Origin: Lancefieldella rimae ATCC 49626
Lineage (GTDB): Bacteria; Actinomycetota; Coriobacteriia; Coriobacteriales; Atopobiaceae
Assembly (NCBI RefSeq): GCF_000174015.1
Contig: NZ_ACFE01000002.1
Span: 290,430-314,429, forward strand
Reading direction: 5' to 3'
DNA: 24,000 nucleotides
Positions within the stretch are counted from its first letter, which is position 1. The number at the start of each line of letters is the position of its first letter. The position numbers were made by a program, and so were the translations under genes. Shown piece after piece: positions 1 through 22,002 of the stretch. A model generated the notes under the pieces. The model was not told where the DNA came from. It saw nothing but the letters and a program-made list of their open reading frames with translations, and did not search any database.

Positions 1-822
1 GCGAACCTCTTTCAAGGAACGGCTTGCCGCGTTCTCGTCGGAAAACATGACGATGGTGTAGAGTGCATCCACAAGAGCAAGCTGAGAGATCCTCGATGCC
101 AGCGATTCGGAGCGGTATGCGGTCTCCTCGGCGATAGTCACAAGGCAGGCATCGGCAAGAGCTGTCAGGGGCGAAGAGGGATTGCTCGTGATGACGATGG
201 TAGATGCTCCGACCTCGCGGAGCTTCTCGGCGATCTGAATGGTCTGGATGCAGCGCCCGGAATGTGAGACGAGAAGTGCGCAATCATCCCCATTAGAACG
301 TGATGCGCGCATGAGCTGCAGGTGGAAGTCTGCGTCGTAGGCTACACGCTTGGGCGTGCGCAGGAATTTATGGTAGGCATCTGCCGCCACCACGGAGCTT
401 CCGCCCATGCCATAGAAAGTGAGCTGATAACAATCCTCAATGAGTTTTGCCGCATGGATAATATCTTGCTCAGAGAAAAGCTCTTTGGTATCAGTGAGCG
501 ATCGAATGCTGGATTCAAAGACGGTTTCTGCCATCTGTTTCGGTGTTGACTTGTGCGTTATATGTTCATGGATGGAGACTTCGGGGTCAAATCCTTCTGC
601 CGCAAGTTCTCCACGAAAATCTCGAAAACCCTCAAAACCCAGTTTTTGAGTGAACTTGAAGACTGTTGAATCGGCCATACCTAATGTCTGAGCGATTTGG
701 CTTATGGTCATTTTGGATGCCTTGTGCGGATCAGCGAGAAGAAACTCTGCCAACTGGCGTTCCTTATCCGAGAGCGATGATTCTAATGCACGAACTCTTA
801 CCCTGATAGTCTGGCTGGCCAT
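1..822 (-). CDS. RpiR/MurR-family transcriptional regulator (HTH + SIS sugar-phosphate-binding domain); the 3' end runs off the window
   Basis: I translated the reverse strand by hand from the ATG at complement 820-822. It stays open for all 274 codons down to position 1. The N-terminus, MASQTIRVRVRALESSLSDKERQLAEFLLADPHKASKMTISQIAQTLGMADSTVFKFTQKLGFEGFRDFR, is an RpiR-type HTH. Further on, TFYGMGGSSVVAADAYHKFLR...ALLVSHSGRCIQTIQIAEKLREVGASTIVITSN fits a SIS domain. An AGGAGG Shine-Dalgarno lies at complement 827-832. The ORF is missing from the ORF track because it has no stop inside the window. Confidence 0.9.
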   Translation of the reverse strand, partial: MASQTIRVRVRALESSLSDKERQLAEFLLADPHKASKMTISQIAQTLGMADSTVFKFTQKLGFEGFRDFRGELAAEGFDPEVSIHEHITHKSTPKQMAETVFESSIRSLTDTKELFSEQDIIHAAKLIEDCYQLTFYGMGGSSVVAADAYHKFLRTPKRVAYDADFHLQLMRASRSNGDDCALLVSHSGRCIQTIQIAEKLREVGASTIVITSNPSSPLTALADACLVTIAEETAYRSESLASRISQLALVDALYTIVMFSDENAASRSLKEVR

Positions 823-1077: not shown

Positions 1078-2172
1078 ATGAGCAAGAAACTGTTTACCCG
1101 TCGCTCTTTTACCGGATTGGCAGCAGTAACTACGATGAGCTTCTTTACCGGCTGTGACAAAGTAATGAAGCAGGTCCTTAATGGGTCAGGCCAAGATGAC
1201 GGCAAAGGAAGCAGCCAGACTCAAGGTAAAAACCAAGAGGATGAAAAAGAAAGAGTTCTTGCTGCTTGGAATACAACGCCGTTTGTAGAAAAGCCGGATA
1301 ATCCAACACTGGACGGAGACATCAACAAAATTATCGTTGGTGTATGGCAAGTTGATACGGCTATTGGAGCCGGTGATAAAGCCGGTAAAACCTACGATCA
1401 CGCAGGTATGCTTAACCAGGCATACCATGACGGCACCGTCCCTCACTACATTTTTAAGAGCGACGGTACCCATGAGCTGCACCATTTTGACGGTAAAGTA
1501 GATCATGGCAAATGGACTGCCAAAGGCGATTCAGCCATTTCTTGTGTCTATGAGGAAGACGGGACAACGGATGAGTGGATCTACGACAGGGAAGCGCAAC
1601 GACTCAAGTTTGAAGGTAAATCCGCCATTTCAAGTTATCAAAAACTGAGCGACAACCCCAAAGATACCTCTCAAATTGCCTATATTGATGGCAACGTTGT
1701 CAACTTTGCTGCAACGATACCGGGCGTATGGGAGCTCGTAAGCCTCCATCGTATTAATTCGGATGAACCTGATTTAAGTACAGAGGACGTCAAATCTAAT
1801 ATTAAGAAGACCGGAACAAGCTATTTCTTCTCGGTACATAAAAACGGTTTCTGTGCTCTGTTCTATCCAAGCGGAAGAGTCTTGCCGGGAAGAATTGAGG
1901 CAGAGAGTTCTTCTGACGATAAGCAAACCTATCCGATGCTTGTTGCGGCGTCGGATCAATTTGAAAACGTTGAAGAGGCTTCGCTTCAGGCGCATCCAAA
2001 GCGTCCGACAACTGTTTACGTTAAGTTGAAAGAGGTAGAGCTGCTCTTTCAGCATCTGAATCATCGCGAGGATGACTTTGGCGATATTTCTTATGCTCCA
2101 AAAGCATCGTTCCCATGGCACCTCGATAAGCTCGGCAATCCAACGTCTGAATCGAGTGGCGGTAATTCCTAG
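1078..2172 (+). CDS. Secreted lipoprotein with a Tat-like signal and two lipocalin-like (GxW) repeats; function unknown
   Basis: This uses the frame of ORF 1012..2172. I prefer the ATG at 1078, which is preceded by a GGAG-containing Shine-Dalgarno (...TAGGAGAACCC-ATG). The N-terminus is MSKKLFTRRSFTGLAAVTTMSFFTGC. It has a twin-arginine motif (TRRSF), a hydrophobic core, and a lipobox-like FTGC cysteine. The motif recurs as KIIVGVWQVD and ATIPGVWELV, which suggests two lipocalin-like beta-barrel modules. Confidence 0.7.
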   Translation: MSKKLFTRRSFTGLAAVTTMSFFTGCDKVMKQVLNGSGQDDGKGSSQTQGKNQEDEKERVLAAWNTTPFVEKPDNPTLDGDINKIIVGVWQVDTAIGAGDKAGKTYDHAGMLNQAYHDGTVPHYIFKSDGTHELHHFDGKVDHGKWTAKGDSAISCVYEEDGTTDEWIYDREAQRLKFEGKSAISSYQKLSDNPKDTSQIAYIDGNVVNFAATIPGVWELVSLHRINSDEPDLSTEDVKSNIKKTGTSYFFSVHKNGFCALFYPSGRVLPGRIEAESSSDDKQTYPMLVAASDQFENVEEASLQAHPKRPTTVYVKLKEVELLFQHLNHREDDFGDISYAPKASFPWHLDKLGNPTSESSGGNS

Positions 2173-2663
2173 AATAATTACGTCCCAAAAAGTGGTGTAA
2201 GGGCTATTTCCTTACTACCTTCTAGCCTATATTGTGCCGTCTCCTATAAGGCGGAGCATTGCTTGCTTGGAAGGAAATACCCAACGACACAGTTGCGCCT
2301 TTTAATTTCTCAATATGAGAGAAGCATTGTCAAGTGGCATGACGTAGCAGGCCCTAAGATCTTCTTGGGACTTGCTACTACTTTCAACCAGAGAAGTGCC
2401 TGCGCTGAGCATTCCTTAGTCGGCGCTTGCTCGGCAAGCTAATATTCGCGGGCTTTGCTCCACGCCTTTGCTGGTTATGAGATCCAACAATTGGTAGGGA
2501 GGTGTGGTATCGCACTTCGATTCTTCGTCTGGAACCTTCGGTGCGAAGAGCAGTCTTAATAGCGGACACAGCCGATGGCTGTTCAAAAAAGGTTCGTGAG
2601 TAGATCCCAGCTTCGCGTCGACCACAGACATCTCTGATAAAAGTCTTATGAGATACAGTGGGT

Positions 2664-2790
2664 CTAGCTCTTCTGATAGGTCCCTTCCACCCTGCATCCT
2701 ATCTCCCAGACCCAGCACGCAAGTTCGCGAGCGACCGAGATGGTTGAAACTTTGCTTGTGTTGCCGGCTCTCAAGAGCTGCTCATAGCGT
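2664..2790 (-). mobile_element. IS110-family transposase C-terminal remnant (about the last 40 codons only)
   Basis: The minus-strand frame reads RYEQLLRAGNTSKVSTISVARELACWVWEIGCRVEGTYQKS*. This resembles the conserved C-terminal block of IS110/IS116/IS902 transposases (FYxRL..GK..KVA..AvARkLa..iW). Upstream of about 2790 the open frame is only the antisense of the dps fragment, so the transposase has lost its 5' end. Confidence 0.5.
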
Positions 2791-3087
2791 TTGGAGAGGC
2801 GCTTTGATGAGGTAGCTGAGCTCATTCTCATGAATGAAGGCATGCCGCTTGCTTCTATGGATGAATACCTTAAGAACACCCATCTTAAGGAGGCAGCGGA
2901 TGGCTATAAGGATCCCGCCGAGATCTTCTCCGCTATCCTTGCTGACTATGAGTCGATTCGCAACCTTGCCGCAGAAATCAAGAAAGATGCAGATGCAGAG
3001 GGTAACTACCTAGTGTCTGCCGCCATGGACGAGCACATCGCTGCTCTCTCCAAGACCATTTGGATGATCAAGCAGTCTCAGAAGTAA
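2791..3087 (+). pseudogene. dps: Dps (DNA-protection-during-starvation / ferritin-like) C-terminal fragment, 5'-truncated
   Basis: The 98-aa ORF reads (M)ERRFDEVAELILMNEGMPLASMDEYLKNTHLKEA...ILADYESIRNLAAEIKKDADAEGNYLVSAAMDEHIAALSKTIWMIKQ. This matches the C-terminal two helices of Dps-family proteins. The roughly 55-60 N-terminal residues that carry the ferroxidase-centre histidines are missing. An in-frame TAG sits at 2785-2787, immediately upstream, and only a TTG start is available. Confidence 0.7.
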
Positions 3088-3168
3088 CAAGCAGGGCCCT
3101 CAATTTTAAGAGCCTTCAGTTCTAGAAGCTGAGAAGATCTTAAAGGCGCTTCAGTGAAAGCACTCTAA

Positions 3169-3200
3169 GGGTATCGCTTTAACCAGCGGTACCCTTTTTT
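3169..3200 (+). terminator. Rho-independent terminator downstream of the dps fragment
   Basis: The stem is GGGTATCGC (3169-3177) pairing with GCGGTACCC (3186-3194), 9 bp with one G-U pair. The loop is TTTAACCA and a TTTTTT run follows at 3195-3200. Confidence 0.6.
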
Positions 3201-3362
3201 ATAACGCTTACCCCTACTTTTATACCGTTTACGGGGTTTAGGTAAAAAGTAGATGGCATGGATCTAGAAAGAAGAGCAAAATATTATCTAGAATATATTT
3301 TATTTTGTATATTCAATATAGTAGCAAGAAACGTAATGGCAGAAAACTCAAAGGGAGAGACG

Positions 3363-4280
3363 ATGAAAAAAACACTGAGTAAAGCAGGATATGCGATTCA
3401 GTGTGTTGCGGGTGAGCTATGCAAGTGTGATGTAGGGGACAAGATTCCAACCGTTACAGAGCTTGAAGAACAATGCGGCTGCTCTCGAGGGAATATACAA
3501 AAGGCCCTATCTGTGCTCAAAGAAGCAAAAGTTATTGCACTTGAGGCTCACGGCCAGAACGGAACATACGTAACAAAGATAGATTATGTGCTTATCGCCA
3601 ATGTCTGTGACAAGGATATTATAACGGGGCTCATGCCCTTGCCGTATACGACTCGCTACGAAGGGCTTGCTACAGGCCTTTTATCGGAGTTAAACGAATG
3701 CGGGGAAATAAAGGGATTTCTTTCTTTTGCACGAGGCTCAGAAAACAGGATCGAAGCCTTAAAGAATGGTTTTGTTGACTATGTAGTATTAAGTAGATTT
3801 GCAGCAGAGCAATATATAGCAAGTGGCTTTCCGCTAAAAATAGTCCTGAAATTTGGCCCTCATACCTACGTTGGACGACACGTTCTTCTCGCGCGCCAAG
3901 ACTCTACCGATAATCAGGATCTACTTAAAGTTGGGATTGACGTGTCGTCTGCTGACCAAAGCATGCTTACCAAACAGTACTTCAAGCGCATGGAAGTCGA
4001 TTATGTCCCCGTTCAATATATGAATATCGTAAAAATGCTTGACGAGAAGAGCATAGATGTCGGCATTTGGAACGAAGACGATATCCACGTACTTGAAGAT
4101 CACTTGGATATAAAACCTTTGCATGACCCTGATGAACAGTCGTCTAATAACGAGGCGGTAATTGTGACGTTAAAAAATGACGCTCTTACACAGAGTCTCA
4201 TTGCACACCTGGTCGATAAAGAGCGCGTTTTGAATATTCAAAAGAAGGTTATGTCCGGAAATATGCTTGCTCGGTACTAA
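3363..4280 (+). CDS. yhfZ: YhfZ-family regulator (GntR-like winged HTH + YhfZ C-terminal ligand-binding-like domain)
   Basis: This uses the frame of ORF 3258..4280. I prefer the ATG at 3363, which follows AAGGGAGAG and gives 305 aa (E. coli YhfZ is about 300 aa). The HTH is IPTVTELEEQCGCSRGNIQKALSVLKEAKVIALEAHGQNGTYV. Blocks I remember from E. coli YhfZ are present: MPLPYTTRYEGLATGL, VVLSRFAAEQY, GPHTYVGRH, GIDVSSADQ and a VMSG...Y C-terminus. Confidence 0.9.
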   Translation: MKKTLSKAGYAIQCVAGELCKCDVGDKIPTVTELEEQCGCSRGNIQKALSVLKEAKVIALEAHGQNGTYVTKIDYVLIANVCDKDIITGLMPLPYTTRYEGLATGLLSELNECGEIKGFLSFARGSENRIEALKNGFVDYVVLSRFAAEQYIASGFPLKIVLKFGPHTYVGRHVLLARQDSTDNQDLLKVGIDVSSADQSMLTKQYFKRMEVDYVPVQYMNIVKMLDEKSIDVGIWNEDDIHVLEDHLDIKPLHDPDEQSSNNEAVIVTLKNDALTQSLIAHLVDKERVLNIQKKVMSGNMLARY

Positions 4281-4296
4281 AAGGAGGGGAGAGAGT

Positions 4297-4659
4297 ATGC
4301 GAGAAGTTTTTGAAAGAATTGAAATATTAAAGCAAGCGGGTTTTGTTGACGAGAACGACGCCGAGAGCCTGAAGAACGTTGTTGCACTCATTGAGCATGA
4401 GTGTGGTCCTGCAGAATCTGACGAGCATATTGGCATTATCATTACCCACATTGCCGCTGCTCTTAAAAGAAATGTCGAGGAAGAAGAAATCGCTCCTATC
4501 AATCAGCAGGCACTGGAAGAGGTGTATGCAAGTCCCGTATTCCCAAAAGCAAATCGTATAGCCAACGATATCAGCGACATGTTTGCAGAAAGGTTAAGTA
4601 AAGATGAGTTTGGTTTTGTTCTTGTCCATATAGCCGGTTTGTTGGTGGCACACCAGTAG
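4297..4659 (+). CDS. yhfY: YhfY-like stand-alone PRD-domain protein
   Basis: This uses the frame of ORF 4267..4659. I prefer the ATG at 4297, which follows AAAGGAGGGGAGAG and gives 120 aa, the same size as E. coli YhfY. It has two PRD-like helices with conserved histidines (IIITHIAAALKR and FVLVHIAGLL). There is no DNA- or RNA-binding domain. Confidence 0.8.
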   Translation: MREVFERIEILKQAGFVDENDAESLKNVVALIEHECGPAESDEHIGIIITHIAAALKRNVEEEEIAPINQQALEEVYASPVFPKANRIANDISDMFAERLSKDEFGFVLVHIAGLLVAHQ

Positions 4660-4672
4660 GGAGGAAGAATCT

Positions 4673-5032
4673 ATGAGAATTGCAGTTGGGGGTCTTAATA
4701 AAAACGAAACGGAGGCAGCGATCAAAAAGGCCGACCCTTCAATTGAAGTCGTTGTTACGAACGACATGCAGGGAGCCCAGATGATTAAAAGCGGGAAGGT
4801 TGATTATTACATTGGAGCATGCAATAGCGGCGGCGGAGCAGCTATTTCAATTTTGATTGGACTCGTGGGCTATACGAAGTGTTGCACAGTCTGCAAAAAC
4901 GGGGGCAGCCCCAGCTTTGAGGAAATCAAAAAGTTTGTTGATGAGGGAAAACTGGTATTTGGAACAACGGTAGATACTATCGATACAACAGTGCCCTTAC
5001 TTGTCCGGGCTCTCGTTGAAAAGTCAGAGTAA
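4673..5032 (+). CDS. yhfU: YhfU-like protein (DUF2620 family)
   Basis: The protein is 119 aa. MRIAVGGL...VDYYIGACNSGGGAAISILIGLVGYTKCCT matches the block I remember from E. coli YhfU (LDYYIGACNTGAGAALSIAI..IGYNKSCT). The start lies 13 nt after the yhfY stop and is preceded by GGGAGGAAG. Confidence 0.85.
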   Translation: MRIAVGGLNKNETEAAIKKADPSIEVVVTNDMQGAQMIKSGKVDYYIGACNSGGGAAISILIGLVGYTKCCTVCKNGGSPSFEEIKKFVDEGKLVFGTTVDTIDTTVPLLVRALVEKSE

Positions 5033-5056
5033 ATAACGGTTGAGAGGAAGTGTGTT

Positions 5057-6385
5057 GTGGAAGTTTCTGCGCTAAGCGTTATTTTGATTGGGGCAGTATG
5101 TGCGGTAACAGCTTTGTTATCCCATATGGGCGTTGCAGTTTTTAATGATGGTGTAAGACCGTTTGTCCCAGAATTCCTTGAGGGTCGTATGCCGCGTCCT
5201 GAATATGCTCTTGCGGTGTTTGGTCTTTGCATTGGCTTTATTGCTTCTGTCGGTATCGGCAATGCACTTGCGACAAATCTTTTGAACCCCTGGCTTCTTT
5301 TTCTTGCGACAGACATTATTGGTGCATTTTGCCCAAACAAATGGTCTGCTGCTATTGCGGGAGCTGTATGGGGTGTTCTGTGTCTTGTTAGCCTTGGCGG
5401 TATTAATACAGCTCTTACCTTTCTTCCTGTTGACTTGCTTGGGTCACTTGGTCAGCTTGGAACCTATATTGTTACTGGCTTTGCCCTCTTTCCTGTTCTT
5501 GCCATTACGATGCAGTTTGGTTGGAAGAGAGGTGTCGTTACAGCAGTTTTAGCTATTCTTGCTCGTATTTTTGGGCCTATGTGGAAGTTTGGACCTTCCA
5601 AGGCGTCAATCAGCGCTGATGCATGGATGCTTCTTGTTGGTGTGATTTTGCTCTTTGGCTTCGCAATTGCTCAGGACCTCTCCAATAAAGGCGAGAAGAA
5701 CGGTGAGTTTGAAGGTAACTTGTTCTCTGAACGCGTTGCTCGGATTCGCAAGAATGTTCCATTCCTTATGGTCGGTGGCGCTCTTATTGCAGTTATTTGT
5801 AATCTGCACCTTTTTGCTGGATCAACAGTGTCTATGTTTAGCTTAGCTGATGCCTACCATGGAGCTGCGAATGCCTCAGAACTCATTCAGTCCGCAGCAG
5901 TAAACGAGCTCTTCCGTGGCTTGAGCTTTATCCCCCTGATTGCGGTCACCGCTATTACTACAGGTGTTTACGGAGTTGCTGGCTTTACCTTTATTTACGT
6001 GGCAGGCTATCTTGCTCCAAATCCATTTGTAGCAGCAATCTTGGGAGCCCTTATCATTTTTGTTGAAGTTATGCTCCTTGGGTTTATTGGTAAGCAGCTT
6101 GGACGGTTCCCAAGTCTTCGTGATGCTGCTGACAATATTCGTTCTGCTATGGGAACGTGCGTTGAGTTTGCAGTTCTCTTTGGATCTCTCAATGCGGTAA
6201 TTGCCATGGGAACAAAGATCGGAAACCCGGCTCTTGCCTTTGCGATTGCAGCCGCGGCGTACTATCTCAATGAAGTGACTGGTCGAAAGATCATGCGCAT
6301 GGCCATTGGTCCTGTATTTGCTCTTGTAACGGGCATTATTTTGAACCTTTTGTATTTTGTTGGCCTCGTTGCTCTTGTCGGTTAG
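5057..6385 (+). CDS. yhfT: YhfT-family polytopic membrane protein (putative permease)
   Basis: The protein is 442 aa with a GTG start after GAGAGGAAG. It is hydrophobic throughout, with at least 10 predicted transmembrane segments by eye. Its size (E. coli YhfT is about 434 aa) and its position next to yhfU match YhfT. Confidence 0.82.
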   Translation: MEVSALSVILIGAVCAVTALLSHMGVAVFNDGVRPFVPEFLEGRMPRPEYALAVFGLCIGFIASVGIGNALATNLLNPWLLFLATDIIGAFCPNKWSAAIAGAVWGVLCLVSLGGINTALTFLPVDLLGSLGQLGTYIVTGFALFPVLAITMQFGWKRGVVTAVLAILARIFGPMWKFGPSKASISADAWMLLVGVILLFGFAIAQDLSNKGEKNGEFEGNLFSERVARIRKNVPFLMVGGALIAVICNLHLFAGSTVSMFSLADAYHGAANASELIQSAAVNELFRGLSFIPLIAVTAITTGVYGVAGFTFIYVAGYLAPNPFVAAILGALIIFVEVMLLGFIGKQLGRFPSLRDAADNIRSAMGTCVEFAVLFGSLNAVIAMGTKIGNPALAFAIAAAAYYLNEVTGRKIMRMAIGPVFALVTGIILNLLYFVGLVALVG

Positions 6386-6433
6386 AAAGGCTTGCCGGGC
6401 GTATGAGGTAAGTTTGGATATAAGGTGATGTAG

Positions 6434-7348
6434 ATGATTCAAACAGTGCTTGGACAAATTGATGCAGCAAAGCTTGGTATCACCATGGCGCATGAGCACC
6501 TTTCGGTCAATTTAGGAAGTGTGCGAGGAGATACTGATTCCATCTTTTCGTATTCAAAAGATTTGTTACAGGAGCTCAAAACACTTACTGATGCCGGAGT
6601 GCATACGGTGGTCGAAGTGAGCTGCAATGATATGGGAAGAGACGTCCAAGCACTGCGGAAAATCTCTCAAGAATCCGACTTACAGATTGTATGCTCAACG
6701 GGATTTTATCTTGAGAAGTACCATCCTGCATGGATCAAAGATGCTTCTATAGAAGATATTGAAGAGATTTTTGTTAAAGATCTTACGGTAGGTATCGACG
6801 GTACCAACATCAAGGCGGGAATTATCGGAGAAATTGCTGGTGAGGAGAAGCGCATAACTTCTTCTGAAGAAAAAGTTATGCGCGCTGCCGCGCGTGCTGC
6901 TTCCAAGACGGGATGTGCCGTAACTACTCACTGCCAACTGGGACAAATGGCGCCAGCTCAGGCGGACCTTTTGCTCTCGGAAGGAATGAAACCCGAAAAG
7001 CTGATTTTAGGTCATCTAGATTTGGCGAATGATCTTGACTATTACCATACCGTCCTTGCATATGGGGTAACTATGGGCTTTGATACCTGTGGAAAGACAG
7101 CGTATCTTGCTGACGAGGCGAGAATTAAGAACCTAATAAAATTGATTGAAGAGGGTTTCAGTTCCCAAATAGTACTTTCAACGGACATTTCGCGTAAATC
7201 CTACATGTCAGTCTATGGAGGGCTTGGCTATGCAAGAGTGATGAACTATATTGTTCCGCAGCTCAAAGAGCATGGCGTCTCTACTGACGATATTGATAAT
7301 TTGCTTTCACGTAATCTTGCAAGAATTCTTGATATGGCAAAGGATTAA
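6434..7348 (+). CDS. php: Phosphotriesterase-homology protein (Php/YhfV; amidohydrolase superfamily, binuclear metal centre)
   Basis: The protein is 304 aa. The metal-ligand pattern aligns with my memory of E. coli Php: MAHEHL (HxH), GIDGTNIKAGIIGEIAG (Glu replacing the carbamylated Lys), VTTHC, LGHLDL and LSTDISR. The blocks FDTCGK and IVPQLKEHGVS..DID.LL..N are also present. Confidence 0.92.
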   Translation: MIQTVLGQIDAAKLGITMAHEHLSVNLGSVRGDTDSIFSYSKDLLQELKTLTDAGVHTVVEVSCNDMGRDVQALRKISQESDLQIVCSTGFYLEKYHPAWIKDASIEDIEEIFVKDLTVGIDGTNIKAGIIGEIAGEEKRITSSEEKVMRAAARAASKTGCAVTTHCQLGQMAPAQADLLLSEGMKPEKLILGHLDLANDLDYYHTVLAYGVTMGFDTCGKTAYLADEARIKNLIKLIEEGFSSQIVLSTDISRKSYMSVYGGLGYARVMNYIVPQLKEHGVSTDDIDNLLSRNLARILDMAKD

Positions 7349-7350
7349 GT

Positions 7351-8451
7351 ATGGAGACATTTCCCTTGTATTCCCGGTCATTTGAAGAGGCAAAAGAATT
7401 GCAGTTCAAAATTGTTGACTGTGCAACAAAAGTTTTCAATGGAAATGACGCCCTCTCGATAGGGGACTTGGGTGTGCATAAAGGCACCAATGAGCCTCTC
7501 CAAACCATCCGAGTTGAGAAGGTACTTGCAAGAGCTTTCGATGCCGAAGATGCCGTTCTTGTACGGGGTGCGGGAACCGGAGCGCTGAGATGGGCTCTTG
7601 CAGCCACAATCAAGCCAGGGTCAACCATACTTGTGCATGATGCTCCAATATATCCAACAACAAAAGTGACGCTTGAGCTTATGGGATGTACGGCAGTTTA
7701 TGCGGATTTTAATAATCTAGAGCAGACTAAGAGAGTGATTGAAGAAGCCAAGGGCTTATCGGCAGTCTTAATACAACATTCCCGACAAAAGCCAGATGAT
7801 TCGTATGATCTTGGGCAGGTTATACGAGTTGTCAGAGACGCAAATCCAGGGCTTCCGATAGTGGTCGACGACAATTATGCCGTTACGAAAGTCATGAAAA
7901 TCGGATGGCAAGCGGGAGCTGACTTGTCGGCGTTCTCAAGCTTCAAATTACTTGGACCAGAAGGAGTCGGCATCGTACTTGGTGCCAAGGACTACATTTC
8001 TGCGATCCGCAAAATGCAATATTCGGGCGGAAGCCAGGTCCAAGGTTCGGAGGCAATGGAAGTCCTTCGTGGTCTTATTTATGCACCGGTCGCACTATCA
8101 ATTACGGGGGCAACGTGTCATGAGTTGGCAGACCGGCTGAATGCGAAAGAGATCCCTCATGTTGTTCAGGCCTTTGTCGCCAACTCCGAAAGTAAGGCCG
8201 TTCTTATAGAGTTTGATGAAGATATCGCCGAGAAAGTTCTTGAACTTGCACCTGTGTACGGAGCTGCTCCTCATCCCGTGGGATGTGAGAGCAAATATGA
8301 ATTCTTGCCAATGTTCTACCGGATAAGTGCAACGTTTCGAGAGGCAAATAGTGCGTGGGAACATCGAATGATCCGGGTAAATGTTATGCGTTCCGGAGCG
8401 GATACCGTTATACGGATCCTTAAAGAGCTGTTGGATGAGATCTATAGCTAG
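7351..8451 (+). CDS. yhfS: YhfS-like fold-type-I PLP-dependent enzyme
   Basis: The protein is 366 aa and starts 2 nt after the php stop. METFPL..., VRGAGTGALR, ILVHDAPIYPTTKV, DDNYAVTKV, FSSFKLLGPEGVG (the candidate PLP lysine), YSGGSQVQG, PVGCESKYE and FYRISATFR match blocks I remember from E. coli YhfS. Confidence 0.9.
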   Translation: METFPLYSRSFEEAKELQFKIVDCATKVFNGNDALSIGDLGVHKGTNEPLQTIRVEKVLARAFDAEDAVLVRGAGTGALRWALAATIKPGSTILVHDAPIYPTTKVTLELMGCTAVYADFNNLEQTKRVIEEAKGLSAVLIQHSRQKPDDSYDLGQVIRVVRDANPGLPIVVDDNYAVTKVMKIGWQAGADLSAFSSFKLLGPEGVGIVLGAKDYISAIRKMQYSGGSQVQGSEAMEVLRGLIYAPVALSITGATCHELADRLNAKEIPHVVQAFVANSESKAVLIEFDEDIAEKVLELAPVYGAAPHPVGCESKYEFLPMFYRISATFREANSAWEHRMIRVNVMRSGADTVIRILKELLDEIYS

Positions 8452-8478
8452 GGATATGTAGAAGAGCTGGAGGCTCTG

Positions 8479-9639
8479 ATGTTTTTGGACAGGCTGAATA
8501 AAACCAATAAATCGCTGGTAGATCTAGCATTTTCTCTGCATCAGCAGGGGGCTATAGAGCCAGATACCTATATAGTTGATCTTGACTCACTGATAGAAAA
8601 TGCACAGAAGCTCAAAAAGAAAGCTAACGAGAAGAACATCCAGCTGTATTTCATGCTCAAGCAATTAGGAAGAAATCCTCTTATTGCTCAGACTCTTGAC
8701 GAACTTGGGTATGCCGGAGCGGTATGTGTTGATTATAGGGAAGCAACAACGCTTGGTGAGAATGGAGTCCGGCTGGGGCATGTGGGAAACCTTGTGCAGA
8801 TTCCTCTTCAAAGTATTGAGAGAATACTGACGTACCGACCAGAAATCGTAACGGTTTTCTCACGAGAAGAAGCAAAAAGAATTGGAGAGGTTGCAGAACG
8901 GCTTGGTTTTGTTCAGTCTATTATGCTTAAAGTTCTTGATACAGAGGATGTTCAATATTCTGGCCAAAGTGGCGGTTTTTATGTGGATGAACTTGAGCAA
9001 GTGGAACAAGAAATCGCAAAAACTTCCGGTGTACATATAGCAGGAGTCTGTTCGTTTCCGTGTTTCTTGTTTTCTGATCAAACAAATCGTATAGAGACGT
9101 TGCATAACGTTTCTACAGTACAAAAGGCTTGCGAGTACCTTCATTCAGTAGGTTATGACAATCTCCAGGTTAATCTACCCTCGCAGAGCTGTACTGCTCT
9201 TGTGGATCGAGTGAGCCAACTTCAAGGGACGCATATGGAGCCTGGACATGGGCTGACAGGAACGACGCCCTATCATGCTGCCGGTAACGACATGGATGAG
9301 AAGACGTCGTACGTATACGTAAGCGAGATAAGCCACAATCTTGGATCAAATTCTTATTGCTATGGTGGGGGCTTTTATAGGCGCGGACACCTGCATCGTG
9401 CTCTTGTAGGAAAAAGAGAAGATTCTGCAAAGACATGCGAGGTAAACGCGCCAACTCCCGAAAGTATTGATTACTATTTTGAACTATCTCAGAATGCGAC
9501 CGTAGGAGATACGGTGCTTATGTGTTTTAGAGCACAGATGTTTGTTACCAGAAGCCATATTGCCGTGGTACGTGGTCTTTCACATAATGCTCCGGTAATT
9601 GAAGGAGTATTTGATTCGCAAGGTAGAAAAATTCGCTAG
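8479..9639 (+). CDS. yhfX: YhfX-like fold-type-III PLP enzyme (alanine-racemase N-terminal domain family)
   Basis: The protein is 386 aa (E. coli YhfX is about 387 aa). The matching blocks are PDTYIVDLD, LYFMLKQLGRNP (candidate PLP lysine), AVCVDYREA, FPCFLF, EPGHGLTGT, SEISH, SYCYGGGFYRRGH and CFRAQMFVTRS. Confidence 0.88.
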   Translation: MFLDRLNKTNKSLVDLAFSLHQQGAIEPDTYIVDLDSLIENAQKLKKKANEKNIQLYFMLKQLGRNPLIAQTLDELGYAGAVCVDYREATTLGENGVRLGHVGNLVQIPLQSIERILTYRPEIVTVFSREEAKRIGEVAERLGFVQSIMLKVLDTEDVQYSGQSGGFYVDELEQVEQEIAKTSGVHIAGVCSFPCFLFSDQTNRIETLHNVSTVQKACEYLHSVGYDNLQVNLPSQSCTALVDRVSQLQGTHMEPGHGLTGTTPYHAAGNDMDEKTSYVYVSEISHNLGSNSYCYGGGFYRRGHLHRALVGKREDSAKTCEVNAPTPESIDYYFELSQNATVGDTVLMCFRAQMFVTRSHIAVVRGLSHNAPVIEGVFDSQGRKIR

Positions 9640-9648
9640 CTATAGTGA

Positions 9649-10878
9649 ATGGAGCATATGATGAGCGGAAAGTTCGTAGTTATTGTTTTGGATGGTTTTG
9701 GTGTTGGAGAAATGGAGGATACAAAGGATATCCGACCAGCAGACATTGGCTCCAATACCTGCGCCCACATTTTTGAAAACATGCCAGGTCTTACACTTCC
9801 GACCCTAGAGAAGCTCGGTCTTGCAAATGCTGTAGGGAGAGAATTTGAGACACTGCACTTCTCGCCAAGCGCTCTGTATGGTAAGAGCAAGCTCATGCAC
9901 CAGGGTGCTGATACGTTTTATGGGCATCAAGAAATTATGGGAACAAAACCACCAAAACCTCTGGCTGAAGCCATACAGAGCCATATTGAAGAGATCAAAA
10001 CAGAGCTTTCCAAGGCAGGGTTCAAGGTTCGAGAATTCTCGTCTTCTGAGTCAGGGAATAAGATCCTTATCGTCAATGAAGCATGTACTGTGGCAGATAA
10101 TATTGAGTGTGATCCTGGCCAGGCGTTCAATGTAACTGCTGCAATAGATGATATTGATTTTGAAACTGAGCTGACAATCGGATGTATTGTGAGAAAGGTT
10201 GCAAAAACCCCGCGGGTTATTACGTTTGGAGGCCGGGGAATGCATCTTCAGAACCTCTTGGATGCGATTGAAGAGCATGGTAATTTTATTGGCGTTAATG
10301 CTCCGGCCTCAGGGGTTTATGACAATGACTATCACTGCGTCCATATGGGTTATGGAATTGATGAAAAGGTGCAGGTTCCTTTTATTTTAGGAGAACAAAA
10401 GGTTCCGGTGTATCTATTAGGTAAAGTTGCCGATGTCTGTGCAAATGCATTTGGACAGTCGGAATCTATTGTGGATACGGCTCAGGTACTTTCTCGAACC
10501 CTTGCCATTGTGTCATCAATTGAGGGCGGGTTTGTTTGTACCAATGTGCAAGAGACAGATCTTCAGGGACATGGAGAGAGCGTACCTGGGTATGCCGAGA
10601 AATTGAGGATCGCCGACTCATACATTGCTCAAATCATTGATGAGCTACAGGATGACGATATTTTGATAGTTATGGCCGATCATGGCAACGATCCTACGAT
10701 TGGTCATCCTCATCATACAAGGGAACATGTGCCGCTGTTGATATATACCAAAAATGGGACTCCAAAAAATATTGGAGTCCGAGAGACCCTGTCTGATGTT
10801 GGGGCAACCGTAGCGGATTATTTTGGAGCTCCTTCACCTGAGAACGGTACGAGTTTCTTAAGTGCAATAAGAGAATAA
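9649..10878 (+). CDS. yhfW: YhfW-like metalloenzyme (phosphopentomutase/alkaline-phosphatase superfamily)
   Basis: The protein is 409 aa from the ATG at 9649. In-frame ATGs at 9658 and 9661 sit closer to a GGAG at 9651-9654 and may be the true start. The matching blocks are IVLDGFGVGEM, LPTLEKLGLANA, GADTFYGHQEIMGT, VITFGG, VHMGYGIDEKVQVP, CTNVQETDLQGH, VMADHGNDPTIGHPHHTREHVPLL and LSDVGATVADYFGAP. Confidence 0.88.
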   Translation: MEHMMSGKFVVIVLDGFGVGEMEDTKDIRPADIGSNTCAHIFENMPGLTLPTLEKLGLANAVGREFETLHFSPSALYGKSKLMHQGADTFYGHQEIMGTKPPKPLAEAIQSHIEEIKTELSKAGFKVREFSSSESGNKILIVNEACTVADNIECDPGQAFNVTAAIDDIDFETELTIGCIVRKVAKTPRVITFGGRGMHLQNLLDAIEEHGNFIGVNAPASGVYDNDYHCVHMGYGIDEKVQVPFILGEQKVPVYLLGKVADVCANAFGQSESIVDTAQVLSRTLAIVSSIEGGFVCTNVQETDLQGHGESVPGYAEKLRIADSYIAQIIDELQDDDILIVMADHGNDPTIGHPHHTREHVPLLIYTKNGTPKNIGVRETLSDVGATVADYFGAPSPENGTSFLSAIRE

Positions 10879-10882
10879 AACG

Positions 10883-11956
10883 ATGGGGTATACACTCGAA
10901 CAGCGAATAGTACTTGCTCAGCGGGCACTTGGAAACAGTGTTGTGGCAATTAACCATGATGTTGCAGGAGCTTCAACTGAGACAATCTATGTTGGTATAA
11001 AAGATACCGAGTGCATTTCCGATGATTTGATTGAGACCATTAAAAGTTCTTCTCGGTATCGAATACTTACGGTTGACAAAATGAGTGATTTTGGTCGCAG
11101 TGTTGACAGTGATTTGGTCAATCCTCTGACATTTAGTCCCATGACTGGATCGACAAGCGGAGGCCCAATCAATATTCTGAAGGGCATTACCGATGTATGC
11201 ATTGGGACGGACGGTGGTGGCAGCGTTCTAGCGCCGGCTCTTGCAACAAATCTGTATTCATTTCTGGGAACTGGTATGGGTTTGACGTGTACGCAAAAAG
11301 GCATTTCTACCGACGGCATTCCATTGAGTCCAGGTGTGGGAGTTATTGGCGCTTCTCTGGAGAGTGTCATTGATCTTGTGAAGTTGATCTGTCAAATAGA
11401 TATTGATTGCAGCCCAAGAAAGAGGCACTTAAAGCTGGTACTTCCGGCGCCATCGTGTAAAAAGCATCCTTCGAGGGCAACAATATATGAAAGGATACAG
11501 TCCTACCTCAAGGCGTTGAGCGTTGAGGTGGATTGTGTCACCTATCCATATATAGATATGGCTGACCGAAAAAGTACCGTTAATGACTTAAAGCATATAT
11601 GGCGAGAAGATCCGTGCGCCATAGTGGTTTCATTTGAAGGGCCGATTGACTATCCGCTTCCTGAAGAGTCGATACGTAGTTCGTTTAGAGGGCTTGTTGA
11701 GGAAGAGAGTGATGTAGATCATACAAAATTGCTCTGCAAGTCTATCAACATTGCAGGTGGGACTGCTATAACAATTCCAGCTGATGAGATTGCGAGTGGA
11801 CTGTTATTGGCGGCTGCTCCAGGGTTAGAGCAAGTGCAGAATTTGGTTTTTCTCGCGAAAGAGATTGATAAAATTACCCCAAAGTCAGCCCTTTTTGAAA
11901 AGTATTTTCTCAATCATGAAAAAGCACCAACAATAAGGACGAGTACTGTATTTTAA
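10883..11956 (+). CDS. Short, divergent amidase-signature (AS)-like protein; ninth gene of the operon
   Basis: The protein is 357 aa and starts 4 nt after the yhfW stop. NPLTFSPMTGSTSGGPINILKGITDVCIGTDGGGSVLAPALA resembles the AS core (NP...GGSSGG...GTDtGGSiRiPA). VGIKDTE resembles the catalytic-lysine block (KD). The C-terminal roughly 200 aa has no motif I recognise. Confidence 0.65.
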   Translation: MGYTLEQRIVLAQRALGNSVVAINHDVAGASTETIYVGIKDTECISDDLIETIKSSSRYRILTVDKMSDFGRSVDSDLVNPLTFSPMTGSTSGGPINILKGITDVCIGTDGGGSVLAPALATNLYSFLGTGMGLTCTQKGISTDGIPLSPGVGVIGASLESVIDLVKLICQIDIDCSPRKRHLKLVLPAPSCKKHPSRATIYERIQSYLKALSVEVDCVTYPYIDMADRKSTVNDLKHIWREDPCAIVVSFEGPIDYPLPEESIRSSFRGLVEEESDVDHTKLLCKSINIAGGTAITIPADEIASGLLLAAAPGLEQVQNLVFLAKEIDKITPKSALFEKYFLNHEKAPTIRTSTVF

Positions 11957-12293: not shown

Positions 12294-12407
12294 ATGAACA
12301 ATCGCGCGGAGTTGTTGTTTACCTTAGTATGCAAGCGTGCCGAGAGGGTTTCTGTTGAACAGATATGTCAAAATGCAGGATTGAAAACTGTCCGTCATGG
12401 CGAGTAG
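12294..12407 (+). other. 37-codon ORF with a strong Shine-Dalgarno: possibly a TetR/DhaS-type regulator N-terminal remnant, or an upstream small ORF of fsa
   Basis: GAGGAGGA at 12281-12288 lies 5 nt before the ATG at 12294. The product is MNNRAELLFTLVCKRAERVSVEQICQNAGLKTVRHGE*. The ...VSVEQICQNAGL segment looks like helices 2-3 of a TetR-type HTH. The stop lies 31 nt before the fsa ATG. The ORF is too short for the ORF track. Confidence 0.2.
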
Positions 12408-12438: not shown

Positions 12439-13107
12439 ATGGAATTTATTCTTGATACCGCTGATTTAGATGCCGTAAAGAAGCTTGATGAATTGTTGAC
12501 TATTGCAGGTGTGACCACTAACCCTACAATTATAACGAAAAGCGGTAAGAGTCCAGAGGATGTCATTCGGCAGTTTGTGGACTATCTGCGCCCTGAGCAG
12601 AAATTCTTTGTCCAAGTGGTTTCGACAGAATATCAGGAGATGTTGGATGAAGCTCGCTACATTTGCGACCTTCGCCCCAAGAATACATATGCCAAAATTC
12701 CCGTTACTCATACGGGTTACAAGGCGATAAAAATACTAAAGTCAGAGGGTCGTGGCGTTTTGGCAACGGCCATCTACTCTGCTGACGAGGCTTTTTTGGC
12801 AGCGTTGAATGGTGCCGATTACCTAGCTCCTTACGTGAACCGCATGTGCAACTACGGAGATGGTATCGGTCAGGTCGTAGATCTTCTTCAAATGCTTGAA
12901 GCCCAGGAATTGAATTCAAAAGTTATTGCCGCTTCATTTAAGAATACGGAGCAGGTCCACGCTCTTATTGCTGCAGGCATTCATGCAGTGACTGTTCCAC
13001 CGGAGATTGCCTATGCGATGATTGGCCATCCTGGCACCGAGATTGCCGTTAAGGAGTTCTCTGCCAACTGGCAGGTCGCTTATGGTCGGGATTCTTTAAG
13101 GAGCTAA
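12439..13107 (+). CDS. fsa: Fructose-6-phosphate aldolase (transaldolase-family class I aldolase, Fsa/TalC type)
   Basis: The protein is 222 aa. The matching blocks are MEFILDTADLDAVKK...AGVTTNPTII, a candidate Schiff-base lysine in YAKIPVT, the APYVNR block that is Fsa-like rather than Tal-type SPFLGR, and a FSANWQVAYGR C-terminus resembling E. coli FsaA F..DWQGAFGR. Confidence 0.87.
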   Translation: MEFILDTADLDAVKKLDELLTIAGVTTNPTIITKSGKSPEDVIRQFVDYLRPEQKFFVQVVSTEYQEMLDEARYICDLRPKNTYAKIPVTHTGYKAIKILKSEGRGVLATAIYSADEAFLAALNGADYLAPYVNRMCNYGDGIGQVVDLLQMLEAQELNSKVIAASFKNTEQVHALIAAGIHAVTVPPEIAYAMIGHPGTEIAVKEFSANWQVAYGRDSLRS

Positions 13108-13246: not shown

Positions 13247-13292
13247 TGCAACGCAAATGCAACGCAAACGTTTGCGTTGCATTTGCGTTGCA
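13247..13292. repeat. 46-bp perfect palindrome built from four copies of the 11-mer TGCAACGCAAA (two direct, a CG centre, two inverted)
   Basis: Read directly from the sequence: TGCAACGCAAA TGCAACGCAAA CG TTTGCGTTGCA TTTGCGTTGCA. Every position pairs with its mirror. The symmetry ends at 13246/13293. Confidence 0.95.
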
Positions 13293-17681: not shown

Positions 17682-19589
17682 ATGGGAAAGATTCTTGGTA
17701 TCGACCTCGGCACTACCAACTCGGCTATGGCTGTCCTCGAAGGTGGCGAGCCGACTATTATCGTTAACGCTGAGGGCGATCGCACTACTCCGTCGGTCGT
17801 GGGTTTCCGCGCTGACGGTGACCGCATTGTCGGTAAGGCAGCAAAGAACCAAGCTGTTACCAACCCTGTGAACACGGTATTCTCCATCAAGCGCTTCATG
17901 GGCCGCAAGTTTGACGAGGTCCAGTCCGAGATGAAGACCGTTCCGTACAAGGTCAAGTCTGGCACCGACGGTCGTGCCGTTGTGGAGATTGAGGGCACCG
18001 ATTACACGCCTGAGCAGATCAGCGCCATGATCCTCTCTAAGATGAAGGCTGACGCCGAGAAGTACCTCGGTGAGAAAGTAACCGACGCCGTCATTACCGT
18101 CCCTGCGTACTTCAATGACTCCCAGCGTCAGGCAACCAAAGACGCCGGCAAGATTGCAGGCCTCAATGTCCAGCGTATCGTTAACGAGCCGACGGCAGCT
18201 GCCCTTGCTTACGGTCTTGATAAGAAAGACAAGGATCAGAAAGTCCTCGTCTTCGACCTAGGCGGCGGCACCTTTGACGTCTCGCTTCTTGACCTTGCCG
18301 ACGGCGTTGTTGAGGTCCTCGCCACTAACGGCGACAACCACCTGGGCGGCGATGACTGGGACCAGCGCGTGATTGACTGGCTTGCCGATAAGTTCAACTC
18401 TGACAACGGCATTGACCTGCGCAAGGATCCTATGGCACTTCAGCGTCTGAAGGAGGCTGCGGAGAACGCCAAGAAGGAACTCTCCAGCGCTCAGCAAGCA
18501 CAGATTAACCTGCCGTTTATTACCGCTGACGCAACCGGTCCTAAGCACCTTGACTACACGCTGACCCGTGCTGAGTTTGAGCGCATCACGCGTGATTTGC
18601 TCGACCGCTGCAAGACCCCGGTAACCAAGGCACTTCAGGACGCCGGTCTTCAGATTTCCAACGTTGACGAGGTCATTCTCGTCGGTGGCTCAACCCGTAT
18701 GCCTGCCGTTCAGGATCTTGTGAAGACTATGACCGGCAAGCAGCCCAACATGTCCGTGAACCCGGACGAGGTCGTCGCTGACGGTGCGGCCGTCCAGGGC
18801 GGCGTTCTGACCGGCGACGTCTCCGGCATCCTGCTTCTGGACGTTACCCCGCTTTCCCTTGGCGTTGAGACCATGGGTGGCGTGATGACCAAGATGATCG
18901 ACCGTAACACCACCATCCCGACGTCCAAGACGGAGATCTATTCCACGGCTGCCGACAACCAGACGTCCGTTGAGATTAACGTCCTTCAGGGCGAGCGCGA
19001 GATGGCTGCGGACAACAAGTCGCTCGGCAAGTTCAACCTGACTGGCATTCCTGCAGCTCGTCGTGGCACTCCTCAGATTGAGGTTACCTTCGACATCGAC
19101 GCCAACGGTATCGTGAAGGTTACCGCAAAGGATAAGGCAACGGGTAAGTCCCAGGAGATTACCATCTCCGGCTCCACCGCGCTTTCTGACGACGAAGTCG
19201 ATCGCATGGTCAAGGACGCAGAGTCTCACGCCGAGGAAGATAAGAAGCGCAAGGATGAGATTGAGGTCCGCAACCAGACCGACTCTCTTGCGTACGGCAC
19301 CGAGCAGACGCTGAAGGATCTTGGCGACAAGGTCCCCGAGGATCAGAAGAAGGCCACCGAGGAGGCCGTTGCTGAGGCTCGTAAGGCACTTGAAGGTACC
19401 GATATCGAGGCCATCAAGGCAGCCGGCGAGAAGCTCCAAGAGGTCGGACACAAACTCGCCGAAGTAGCGTACGCTGACGCCCAGGCTCAGACTGCGGGTA
19501 CGGACGGCGCCTCTGCCGGAAACTCTTCCGACGGCGACGTTGAAGATGCTGATTACGAGGTTGTTGACGACGACAAGTCTCAGAACTAA
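17682..19589 (+). CDS. dnaK: Molecular chaperone DnaK (Hsp70)
   Basis: The protein is 635 aa. The matching blocks are [70 protein letters not shown] and an acidic C-terminal tail. AAGGA lies upstream of the ATG. Confidence 0.98.
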
Positions 19590-19721
19590 GGTGCGAGCGG
19601 AAGGGCTTCTCGCCATTGCTGTGCGCTAGGGGCAAACGGAAGTTGGAGAAGCAAGACGTTCGCATTGGGGAGGTGGCCGGCTTTGATCGGCTGCCTCCCT
19701 CGTACATAGAAGGAGGGTGAC

Positions 19722-20558: not shown

Positions 20559-20592
20559 GTAAAACTTTTATGAGAGGAGGTCGTGCTTAGTC

Positions 20593-21525: not shown

Positions 21526-21528
21526 ACG

Positions 21529-22002
21529 ATGGCGCGCAAGAGCGACGAGAATCGCAAAAGTCGGGAAAGTCGCAATAAACCGCTCTACATGATTAGCGTT
21601 GCGGCTGAGCTTACGGGCATGCATCCACAGACCCTTCGTGTCTACGAACAGAAGGGTCTGGTCAATCCCGGCAGGTCCCGCGGTAATACGCGTCTGTATT
21701 CGCGTGCAGATATCGACCGGTTGAACCTTGTGGCCAAGCTGACGGACGAGGGCATCAACCTTGCCGGCGTCGTGCGCATTCTCGACATGCGCGAGCGTGC
21801 TGTTGAGAAGGACGATGAAATCGATGAGCTCCGTGCCCGTGTCCGTGAGCTTGAGGATGAGCTGCACGAGTACAAGATGCGTGAACGCATTACCTCGCTT
21901 GCCCGCTACGAGGAGTCGAGTCCTGAGCAGATCATGCAGCGCCTTTTGGGTATGTCGTCAGATGCTGAAGATGCCGAAGACGATACCGAGAAAGATGCAT
22001 AA
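21529..22002 (+). CDS. hspR: MerR-family heat-shock repressor HspR
   Basis: The protein is 157 aa and starts 3 nt after the dnaJ stop. It has the MerR-type [49 protein letters not shown], then a coiled coil and an acidic tail. Being the last gene of dnaK-grpE-dnaJ is the classic actinobacterial HspR position. Confidence 0.9.

Follow-up and report, generated by a model that had tools for sequence, protein, structure and literature searches.

A 24,000-nucleotide (nt) stretch of the genome of Lancefieldella rimae ATCC 49626 (contig NZ_ACFE01000002.1, positions 290,430 to 314,429; the whole stretch is hereafter called the window) contains nine tightly packed plus-strand open reading frames (ORFs) at 3258–11956, which probably form a yhf/php-type catabolic operon, self-contained, inducible by its substrate, and built of conserved two-gene modules. 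The gene order is yhfZ-yhfY-yhfU-yhfT-php-yhfS-yhfX-yhfW plus a ninth gene, and the families of all nine genes recur together in at least four phyla. The window is one more Coriobacteriia instance of a known, widespread orphan operon type, parts of which public annotation already names (“YhfT family protein”, “GntR family transcriptional regulator YhfZ”). An earlier reading made from the letters alone (the sequence-only reading) had placed the cluster in an actinobacterial host, as is the case: Lancefieldella (Atopobium) rimae belongs to the class Coriobacteriia, the window region is identical to contig JQCP01000002.1 of assembly GCA_001438885.1, and the ninth protein, YhfT, and DnaK each match an L. 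rimae protein exactly.

The ORF list of the window bears out the proposal of nine same-strand ORFs with gaps of 2–48 nt. Along the block the intergenic gaps measure 16, 13, 24, 48, 2, 27, 9, and 4 nt, and 482 nt separate the ninth gene from the next gene downstream. A terminator pattern scan saw no strong plus-strand terminator-like site inside the nine-gene block, and no Rfam family reached threshold anywhere in the window, so that no riboswitch or leader RNA was detected. From this packing we predict a single transcript for a self-contained, operon-like unit. A terminator-like hairpin with a 12-bp stem and a T-run (3167–3196, plus strand), identified by pattern match only, closes an upstream dps remnant and would insulate the operon.

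Profile hidden Markov model (HMM) searches against Pfam and NCBIfam recovered all eight yhf/php families (YhfZ, PRD/YhfY, DUF2620, YhfT, PTE/Php, YhfS, YhfX, and YhfW), in agreement with the earlier identification of eight products as orthologues of the E. coli yhf/php proteins; full-length identity to the K-12 proteins is 29–52%, with reciprocal similarity at E values from 7e-16 to 1e-143. In E. coli K-12 the same eight families (b3383–b3376) are likewise encoded on one strand in tight packing, with conserved catalytic residues. Their order had been given as Z-Y-X-W-php-U-T-S, which agrees with the MG1655 annotation and differs from the Z-Y-U-T-php-S-X-W of the window. The E. coli cluster also lacks the short amidase that the window has, and it lies beside frlABCDR, whereas the window, from a Coriobacteriia host, has no adjacent frl (fructoselysine) operon. 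RefSeq still calls the MG1655 products “putative” or “uncharacterized”, and the nearest solved structures to YhfS, YhfX, and the C-terminal domain of YhfZ come from the E. coli or Shigella proteins themselves, under uncharacterised or hypothetical titles (PDB 4J8L, 4KBX, and 2OZZ).

For a census of yhf clusters, we ran a YhfT alignment drawn from three phyla against the GTDB representatives, one genome for each species. Of the at least 568 stretches encoding a YhfT relative, 80 loci were fetched, and their ORFs were assigned by comparison with the proteins of the window and of E. coli. YhfT relatives occur in at least 568 species representatives, and the clusters are distributed over Pseudomonadota, Bacillota, Fusobacteriota, and Coriobacteriia. 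The main gene orders number three, and Z-Y heads every main arrangement. Writing each yhf gene as its last letter and php as P, we counted Z-Y-P-U-T-X-W in 17 loci (Vibrionaceae, without yhfS), Z-Y-X-W-P-U-T-S in 15 loci (Enterobacteriaceae), the window order Z-Y-U-T-P-S-X-W in 11 loci (Lachnospiraceae, other Clostridia, Thermophilibacter, and Ca. Olsenella), the same order with a terminal amidase in 4 loci (other Atopobiaceae), and Z-Y-U-T-P-X-W in 5 loci (Clostridia and Oscillospiraceae without yhfS); smaller variants include Z-Y-X-(W)-P-U-T in Yersinia. The sequence-only reading was thus right that the order differs from that of E. coli and mistaken in treating it as peculiar to this genome or to an actinobacterial setting, because 11 + 4 census loci share it. 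The window order is the commonest arrangement in Bacillota and Coriobacteriia and the ordinary form there. Among Gram-positive-type clusters (Lachnospiraceae, Oscillospiraceae, Bacillales, and other Atopobiaceae), YhfT is 60–81% identical to the window protein and differences are confined to the flanking genes; Olsenella uli, Olsenella sp. Marseille-P4559, and Atopobiaceae metagenome-assembled genomes (MAGs; census loci L011, L012, L014, and L015), together with metagenome loci L092 and L094, have both the window order and the terminal amidase.

Across these rearrangements the yhf clusters are shuffled but cohesive modules built of the fixed pairs Z-Y, U-T, and X-W. The genes yhfX and yhfW are adjacent in 70/70 loci and yhfU and yhfT in 76/76, with yhfT always immediately downstream of yhfU. 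Because the modules are shuffled yet kept together over 80 species loci, the set appears to be selected as a functional unit across phyla, as had been argued from the window and E. coli alone. A minimal IclR-php-yhfU-yhfT-PAP2-phosphatase module in Pseudomonas lundensis and Serratia proteamaculans (L077, 7523–12215; L069), with a GntP permease and an IlvD/Edd-type dehydratase downstream and without yhfZ, Y, X, W, and S, suggests that php, yhfU, and yhfT are the working core of the cluster; its irreducible core is yhfU-yhfT, usually with php.

The census also returned individual loci of note. A contig labelled “MAG: Bacteroides thetaiotaomicron” (L024) carries a clostridial-type cluster in the window order, with a YhfT 60% identical to that of the window, and may be either a mis-binned contig or a transfer into Bacteroidota. 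Aeromonas and several Photobacterium (L081, 13805–16021; L052, 13753–16113) encode a 740–790-amino-acid (aa) protein directly 3′ of yhfW, which in the Aeromonas copy (L081) ends in a C-terminal chitin-binding CBM5/12 module. Some Vibrio and Photobacterium loci have phosphotransferase system (PTS) EIIC or EIIBC genes downstream of the cluster.

The core gene yhfU (4673–5032, plus strand) encodes a small cytoplasmic alpha/beta protein assigned by its DUF2620 profile (E = 7e-40) and a structure model. The family alignment shows an invariant loop, D-Y-Y-x-G-x-C-x-[ST]-G-x-G-x-A, whose cysteine (Cys50 in the window protein) is kept in 82/82 sequences; here and below, residue conservation was counted across census sequences, family by family. 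The model (mean predicted local distance difference test score, pLDDT, 95.6) consists of five beta-alpha units, and its best 22 Foldseek matches in the PDB are all type-B ribose-5-phosphate isomerases (RpiB), at TM scores of 0.6–0.72 and a root-mean-square deviation of ~3 Å. As modelled, YhfU shares with RpiB/LacAB a five-stranded alpha/beta fold, and Cys50 ends beta-3 and is followed by x-[ST]-G-x-G, the same layout as RpiB Cys66-Gly-Thr68-Gly-x-Gly. The program hhalign pairs Cys50 with RpiB Cys66 at a profile E of 0.4, which is not significant, and the RpiB profile PF02502 matches 1/29 DUF2620 members, at 0.02. YhfU is also 30 residues shorter than RpiB: it lacks the Asp9/His10 region, ends before the C-terminal part of RpiB, which we take to carry the phosphate-binding arginines Arg133 and Arg137, and differs further in always being encoded beside a membrane protein. 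Identifying YhfU as RpiB by sequence was rejected, and only a fold-level likeness is kept, because the profile comparison is not significant; resemblance at fold level is supported by the model, and membership of the RpiB family is not supported. The membrane protein is YhfT (5057–6385, plus strand; Pfam YhfT, 2e-138), a polytopic putative permease with 10–11 hydrophobic segments, which showed no link to any other Pfam family, EIIC families included, even at E = 10.

The third protein to be considered with this pair is YhfY (4297–4659, plus strand; the longest ORF begins at TTG 4267, and the start is probably 4297), a stand-alone PRD-domain protein (PF00874, 27.8 bits against a gathering threshold, GA, of 23) of 120 aa. 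It consists of one PRD only, without a CAT RNA-binding or DNA-binding output domain, and its PRD histidine (T-H motif; H61 in long-ORF numbering) is invariant in 67/67 sequences. The usual phosphoryl donor of a PRD domain is HPr or a cognate EIIB. This background gives rise to the main rival reading of YhfU-YhfT, a PTS-like group translocation with YhfU as an EIIB-like phosphocarrier (Cys50~P), YhfT as an EIIC-like channel, and YhfY as a PRD sensor of YhfU~P. Substrate would then enter already phosphorylated, and a phosphomutase in a cluster without a kinase would be explained. The unbroken U-T adjacency, the invariant cysteine, the invariant histidine of a PRD-only protein, and the lack of a kinase all speak in its favour, as does a weak match of DUF2620 (5/29 members, best 0.048) to Gly_rich_SFCGS, the small protein in a different kind of PRD-containing cluster. 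The structural evidence does not: Foldseek groups YhfU with RpiB and finds no PTS EIIB among the 50 best PDB fold matches, and the cysteine of YhfU follows beta-3, as in RpiB, whereas lactose- and galactitol-type EIIB carry theirs after beta-1. With no EIIA in the cluster and a YhfT unlike any EIIC Pfam family, we consider group translocation unlikely, though worth keeping in view.

Of the enzymes, Php (6434–7348, plus strand) belongs to the binuclear-metal hydrolases of the PTE family in the amidohydrolase superfamily (Pfam PTE, 3e-68; E. coli PHP, 1BF6/4LEF, 9e-55). Its residues H20, H22, E133, H166, H194, and D251 align with E. coli PHP H12, H14, E125, H158, H186, and D243 and are ~100% conserved over 81 sequences. 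The E. coli Php equivalog model PRK09875 scores best and yet reaches 226 bits against a cut-off of 486, and the nearest characterised NCBIfam relative is phospho-furanose lactonase (1e-42), ahead of organophosphate hydrolase (OPH). Family membership could also be taken to mean that Php is an organophosphate- or xenobiotic-detoxifying phosphotriesterase and that the cluster handles phosphotriester-type compounds, for which one can cite the strength of the PTE match and the many PDB phosphotriesterases at ~1e-45. True phosphotriesterases, however, use a carboxylated Lys bridge between the metals, and the ligand identities of PHP are known from the 1BF6 structure; in the window protein the bridge is a Glu, as in E. 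coli PHP (E133, 81/81). E. coli PHP is the top match, phospho-furanose lactonase ranks before OPH among named NCBIfam families, and two pyridoxal 5′-phosphate (PLP) enzymes and a mutase would have no role in triester detoxification, which makes this explanation extremely improbable.

Two published findings bear on Php. The mammalian homologue PTER is an N-acetyltaurine amidohydrolase (PMC11374699). E. coli php, called a protein without known function, suppresses a pdxB deletion when present in multicopy, and the bypass was inferred to form 2-oxo-3-hydroxy-4-phosphobutanoate (PMC3010111). Both findings fit a Php whose acyl, lactone, or amide substrates would be small, polar, and possibly phosphorylated.

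YhfS (7351–8451, plus strand) is a fold-type I PLP enzyme and an optional member of the cluster. It matches the YhfS-like_C profile at 4e-38 and E. coli YhfS (4J8L) at 3e-114; the next PDB matches are PLP enzymes of Cys/Met metabolism, at 1e-9, and the DgaE/selA_rel family is matched at 6.8e-7. YhfX (8479–9639, plus strand) is a fold-type III PLP enzyme that combines an alanine-racemase-like barrel (Ala_racemase_N) with a YhfX-specific C-terminal domain (YhfX-like_C, 2e-37) and matches E. coli YhfX (4KBX) at 1e-89. Their PLP lysines, Lys199 of YhfS (42/42) and Lys61 of YhfX (77/77), are invariant. YhfW (9649–10878, plus strand) is a phosphopentomutase-like enzyme of the alkaline-phosphatase superfamily (Metalloenzyme, 1.5e-33), with a full-length match to B. 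cereus phosphopentomutase at 3e-38. D15, T89, D304, H308, D344, H345, and H356 align with B. cereus D13, T85, D286, H291, D327, H328, and H339; the nucleophile Thr89 is T in 68 and S in 5 sequences, and the Mn ligands are kept in 72–73/73. By profile score YhfW forms its own PRK12383 group (550 bits against a cut-off of 254), apart from DeoB, whose equivalog models it fails to reach (TIGR01696, 161 against 341; PRK05362, 189 against 256).

The most informative element of the locus is the ninth gene (10883–11956, plus strand), which encodes a compact 357-aa enzyme that we assign to the amidase-signature (AS) class from its signature residues, fold model, and genomic contexts. Standard profiles barely register it: Pfam Amidase (PF01425) matches at 2.8e-4 and 20.5 bits, below the GA of 27, and NCBIfam amidase models give 20–23 bits against cut-offs of 391–498. 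PDB sequence matches nevertheless place residues 80–128 in register with the amidase signature of aryl acylamidase 4YJ6 and others, and a 28-member alignment of the family shows K40, G89-S90-[T/S]91-S92-G93, and G108-T-D-G-G-G-S114-V-L to be invariant, giving a triad of K40 (Lys), position 91 (the cis-Ser site, Thr or Ser), and S114 (the Ser nucleophile). In an AlphaFold2 model (pLDDT 86; predicted TM score, pTM, 0.88) the protein finds only AS enzymes among its 50 best PDB matches by Foldseek (E from 1e-10 to 4e-13, TM ~0.6 over the query), including FAAH, GatA, malonamidase E2, and allophanate hydrolase. It shares with these enzymes the fold and the motifs IKD, GS[TS]SGG, and GTDGGGS; it differs in being ~100 residues shorter than the smallest characterised AS enzymes and, in the window protein, in having Thr at the cis-Ser position.

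An exhaustive HMM search of 1.84 billion representatives returned 103 members of this family at E ≤ 1e-30 and 137 at E ≤ 1e-10, all of ~300–390 aa and with no gradual passage to the canonical amidases of ≥450 aa. Sequence and model together argue for a divergent, shortened AS subfamily with a predicted amidase-type activity. Members lie inside or directly beside a yhf cluster in 12/14 contexts and occupy five different positions there: after yhfW (the window, L011, L012, L014, L015, L092, and L094), before yhfZ (Paraliobacillus, L093), between yhfX and yhfY (Radiobacillus, L006), between yhfT and yhfS (Sebaldella, L042 and L096), and between yhfT and php (L095). One of the two exceptions is a stand-alone copy beside a PGM_PMM phosphohexomutase-family gene in Clostridium polynesiense, and the second is a GntR-amidase fusion in a metagenome (L009). 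Because 12/14 contexts are at yhf clusters, and yhfS is present in every amidase-containing cluster examined, the ninth gene is dedicated to the yhf cluster family and optional within it. The sequence-only reading correctly took it for an amidase; its further view of the gene as a local extension does not hold, since the family is cluster-dedicated and found in Bacillota, Fusobacteriota, and Coriobacteriia.

The fusion itself (protein P0072; L009, 10001–11536) is a 511-aa GntR/UTRA regulator joined to a region 43% identical to the short amidase. It lies in JGI metagenome contigs at an unrelated locus, with DeoC, a mannose-type PTS, and a glycyl-radical enzyme pair as neighbours, and could be a real fusion or a gene-calling artefact.

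The proposed pathway draws each of its steps from family membership. YhfZ would be the DNA-binding sensor, and the PRD-only YhfY, via its conserved histidine, would make expression or uptake depend on the state of the sugar PTS. YhfT would import the substrate together with its obligate neighbour YhfU, which may isomerise a sugar-phosphate-like intermediate or relay a phosphoryl group. Php would open a lactone, lactam, ester, or amide bond, YhfW would shift a phosphate ester on a pentose-like moiety, and YhfX would act on an alpha-amino centre, by racemisation or by elimination or retro-aldol cleavage; YhfS and the short amidase would form an optional extension that handles the substrate when it bears an amide or is further aminated. 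Catabolism of a phosphorylated and/or N-acylated amino compound is a reasonable proposal that fits the conserved catalytic residues, and the most likely substrate class, as far as the protein families indicate, is a phosphorylated amino-sugar-acid, its lactone, or a glycated-amine-like compound.

Several observations weigh against this catabolic scheme. The cluster encodes no kinase and no PTS EIIA, so the phosphate that YhfW would handle is left without an explained origin. YhfT has no detectable relationship to characterised transporter families, and the YhfU-RpiB link is one of fold only, with RpiB Asp9/His10 falling in a gap of the hhalign alignment at E = 0.4. Nor is the pathway uniform, since some variants lack W, S, the amidase, or even P or Z.

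The enzyme set (PLP enzymes, mutase, and hydrolase) is not intrinsically directional, and it could also serve a biosynthetic or modification system for an amino-sugar or amino-acid-derived metabolite or an envelope component, with YhfT as exporter. One metagenome cluster (L092) adjoins polysaccharide biosynthesis genes, as this explanation would have it; across ~90 loci, however, the cluster is never accompanied by a ligase, ATP-grasp enzyme, glycosyltransferase, or nucleotidyltransferase, and the flanks differ between taxa and are unrelated. A sensor-type regulator of its own and a PRD protein are always present, as is typical of catabolic, catabolite-controlled operons, and the patchy distribution resembles that of an accessory nutrient trait. 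We regard a biosynthetic role as very unlikely and retain the catabolic operon as the preferred interpretation.

YhfZ, the regulator at the head of the cluster (3363–4280, plus strand), is a GntR-like protein with a winged helix-turn-helix and a ligand-binding YhfZ_C domain (YhfZ_C, 2e-63, and HTH_41 in Pfam; PDB 2OZZ, “hypothetical protein yhfZ”, 1e-34). The longest ORF begins at 3258, which had been taken as the gene start. That start is contradicted by three lines of evidence: an ATG at 3363 is preceded by the Shine-Dalgarno sequence AAGGGAGAG, the NCBIfam model YhfZ_full (NF041241; 332 bits against a cut-off of 260) covers residues 38–340 of the long ORF, and other assemblies call the protein as 305–314 aa. 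The start is therefore likely ATG 3363. The AT-rich region upstream (3200–3362, plus strand), which overlaps the first 35 codons of the longest ORF, is a putative promoter/operator region. It contains a promoter-like TAGAAA-18-TAGAAT at 3265–3294, which is no more than chance expectation, the promoter scan giving the same number of hits as in shuffled sequence.

The genes flanking the block say little about function, because they are not conserved beside the cluster elsewhere. The sugar-phosphate neighbours of the sequence-only reading do exist: an RpiR/SIS regulator (1–822, minus strand, running off the window edge; HTH_6, 6e-20; SIS, 1e-17), divergent from yhfZ and 2.4 kb away with a lipoprotein-like gene and a dps fragment in between, and a fructose-6-phosphate aldolase (FSA)-type gene (12439–13107), 482 nt downstream of the amidase. 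The functional weight placed on them could not be kept, since neither these nor any other flanking gene of the window was found beside the cluster in any other species sampled, and both were dismissed as functional neighbours. When unassigned ORFs within 4 kb of the clusters were themselves clustered, no cross-phylum accessory gene besides the amidase appeared, and the results were lineage-specific synteny only, such as frl and trpS in Enterobacteriaceae.

The remainder of the window offers further observations. The dps gene is a 98-aa 3′ fragment only (2791–3087), and no ORF with a family match occurs at 2172–2790. Only from 2804 on is the window collinear with an L. rimae-like metagenome contig (L002) of 97.9% identity, which has intact fur and dps upstream; the region 2172–3087 looks like a strain-specific rearrangement with its breakpoint inside dps. 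In the amidase-FSA gap, a 37-codon ORF (12294–12407) with a strong Shine-Dalgarno sequence, AGAGGAGGA, is called in several independent assemblies and has no family match. Directly 3′ of the FSA-like gene lies a 46-nt perfect palindrome (13247–13292) with a 20-bp stem and repeated TGCAACGCAAA units. The GC content is ~45% across most of the window. The segment 13430–17356, with an AAA_14/DUF4143 ATPase, a RhuM-family protein, a minus-strand HAD-like gene, and a GC trough of 0.36 at 16–17 kb, has the look of an island or mobile element that separates the operon from dnaK. The dnaK-grpE-dnaJ-hspR block (17682–22002) has a GC of 0.55–0.59, compared with 0.36–0.49 in every other kilobase of the window, so that base composition shifts abruptly at a housekeeping operon.

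A possible kinship lies with the EF_0829/AHA_3910-type clusters, which, from TIGRFAMs descriptions, we take to comprise a PRD protein, a Gly-rich SFCGS protein, DUF4310/4311/4312 membrane proteins, a DgaE-like PLP enzyme, an amidohydrolase, and a KDPG-aldolase-like protein (KDPG, 2-keto-3-deoxy-6-phosphogluconate). By this composition they resemble the yhf cluster in having a PRD-only protein, a small Gly-rich Cys protein, one or more membrane proteins, a PLP enzyme, and a hydrolase of the amidohydrolase superfamily; their Pfam families, going by these descriptions, are different throughout. Weak cross-matches of DUF2620, YhfS, and YhfY (the last to the PRD family TIGR03582, 2.6e-4) to families of this cluster type hint that the two may be sister systems. 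A more speculative reading builds on this likeness. In it, YhfU-YhfT and YhfY would form an unrecognised uptake device, a new-family permease with an RpiB-like cysteine protein, wired to the PTS by the free-standing PRD and supplying Php, YhfX, and YhfW with an amino-sugar-acid-like nutrient in phosphorylated or isomerised form; with the amidase and YhfS, the range would widen to amide conjugates, and the EF_0829-type clusters would be a sister system. We hold this version to be doubtful, a low-probability conjecture; were it true, the nutrient delivered could be, for example, a glycation or Maillard-type product.

As the sequence-only reading had stated, no substrate or pathway is assigned to the cluster: none was found for it, for DUF2620, or for SFCGS-type clusters in searchable full text and annotation, a scope that leaves out most subscription journals. 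Two papers name yhfZ (PMC12147183) and yhfX (PMC4448311), in both cases only incidentally. As far as we found, the literature also does not describe the cluster-dedicated small AS family, the RpiB-like DUF2620 fold, or the invariant U-T and X-W pairs. The yhf/php block is among the larger E. coli K-12 gene blocks without function, though four of its proteins have crystal structures, and the window by itself adds little testability over the E. coli cluster. The AS family, the DUF2620 fold, and the fixed gene pairs are concrete handles on the function of the operon, whose Gram-positive and fusobacterial versions often add the mini-amidase, always with yhfS. Since L. rimae and its relatives inhabit the mouth and the gut, the nutrient probably comes from the host or its diet, and the comparative results narrow the search for it to phosphorylated amino or amide sugar-acid-like compounds.

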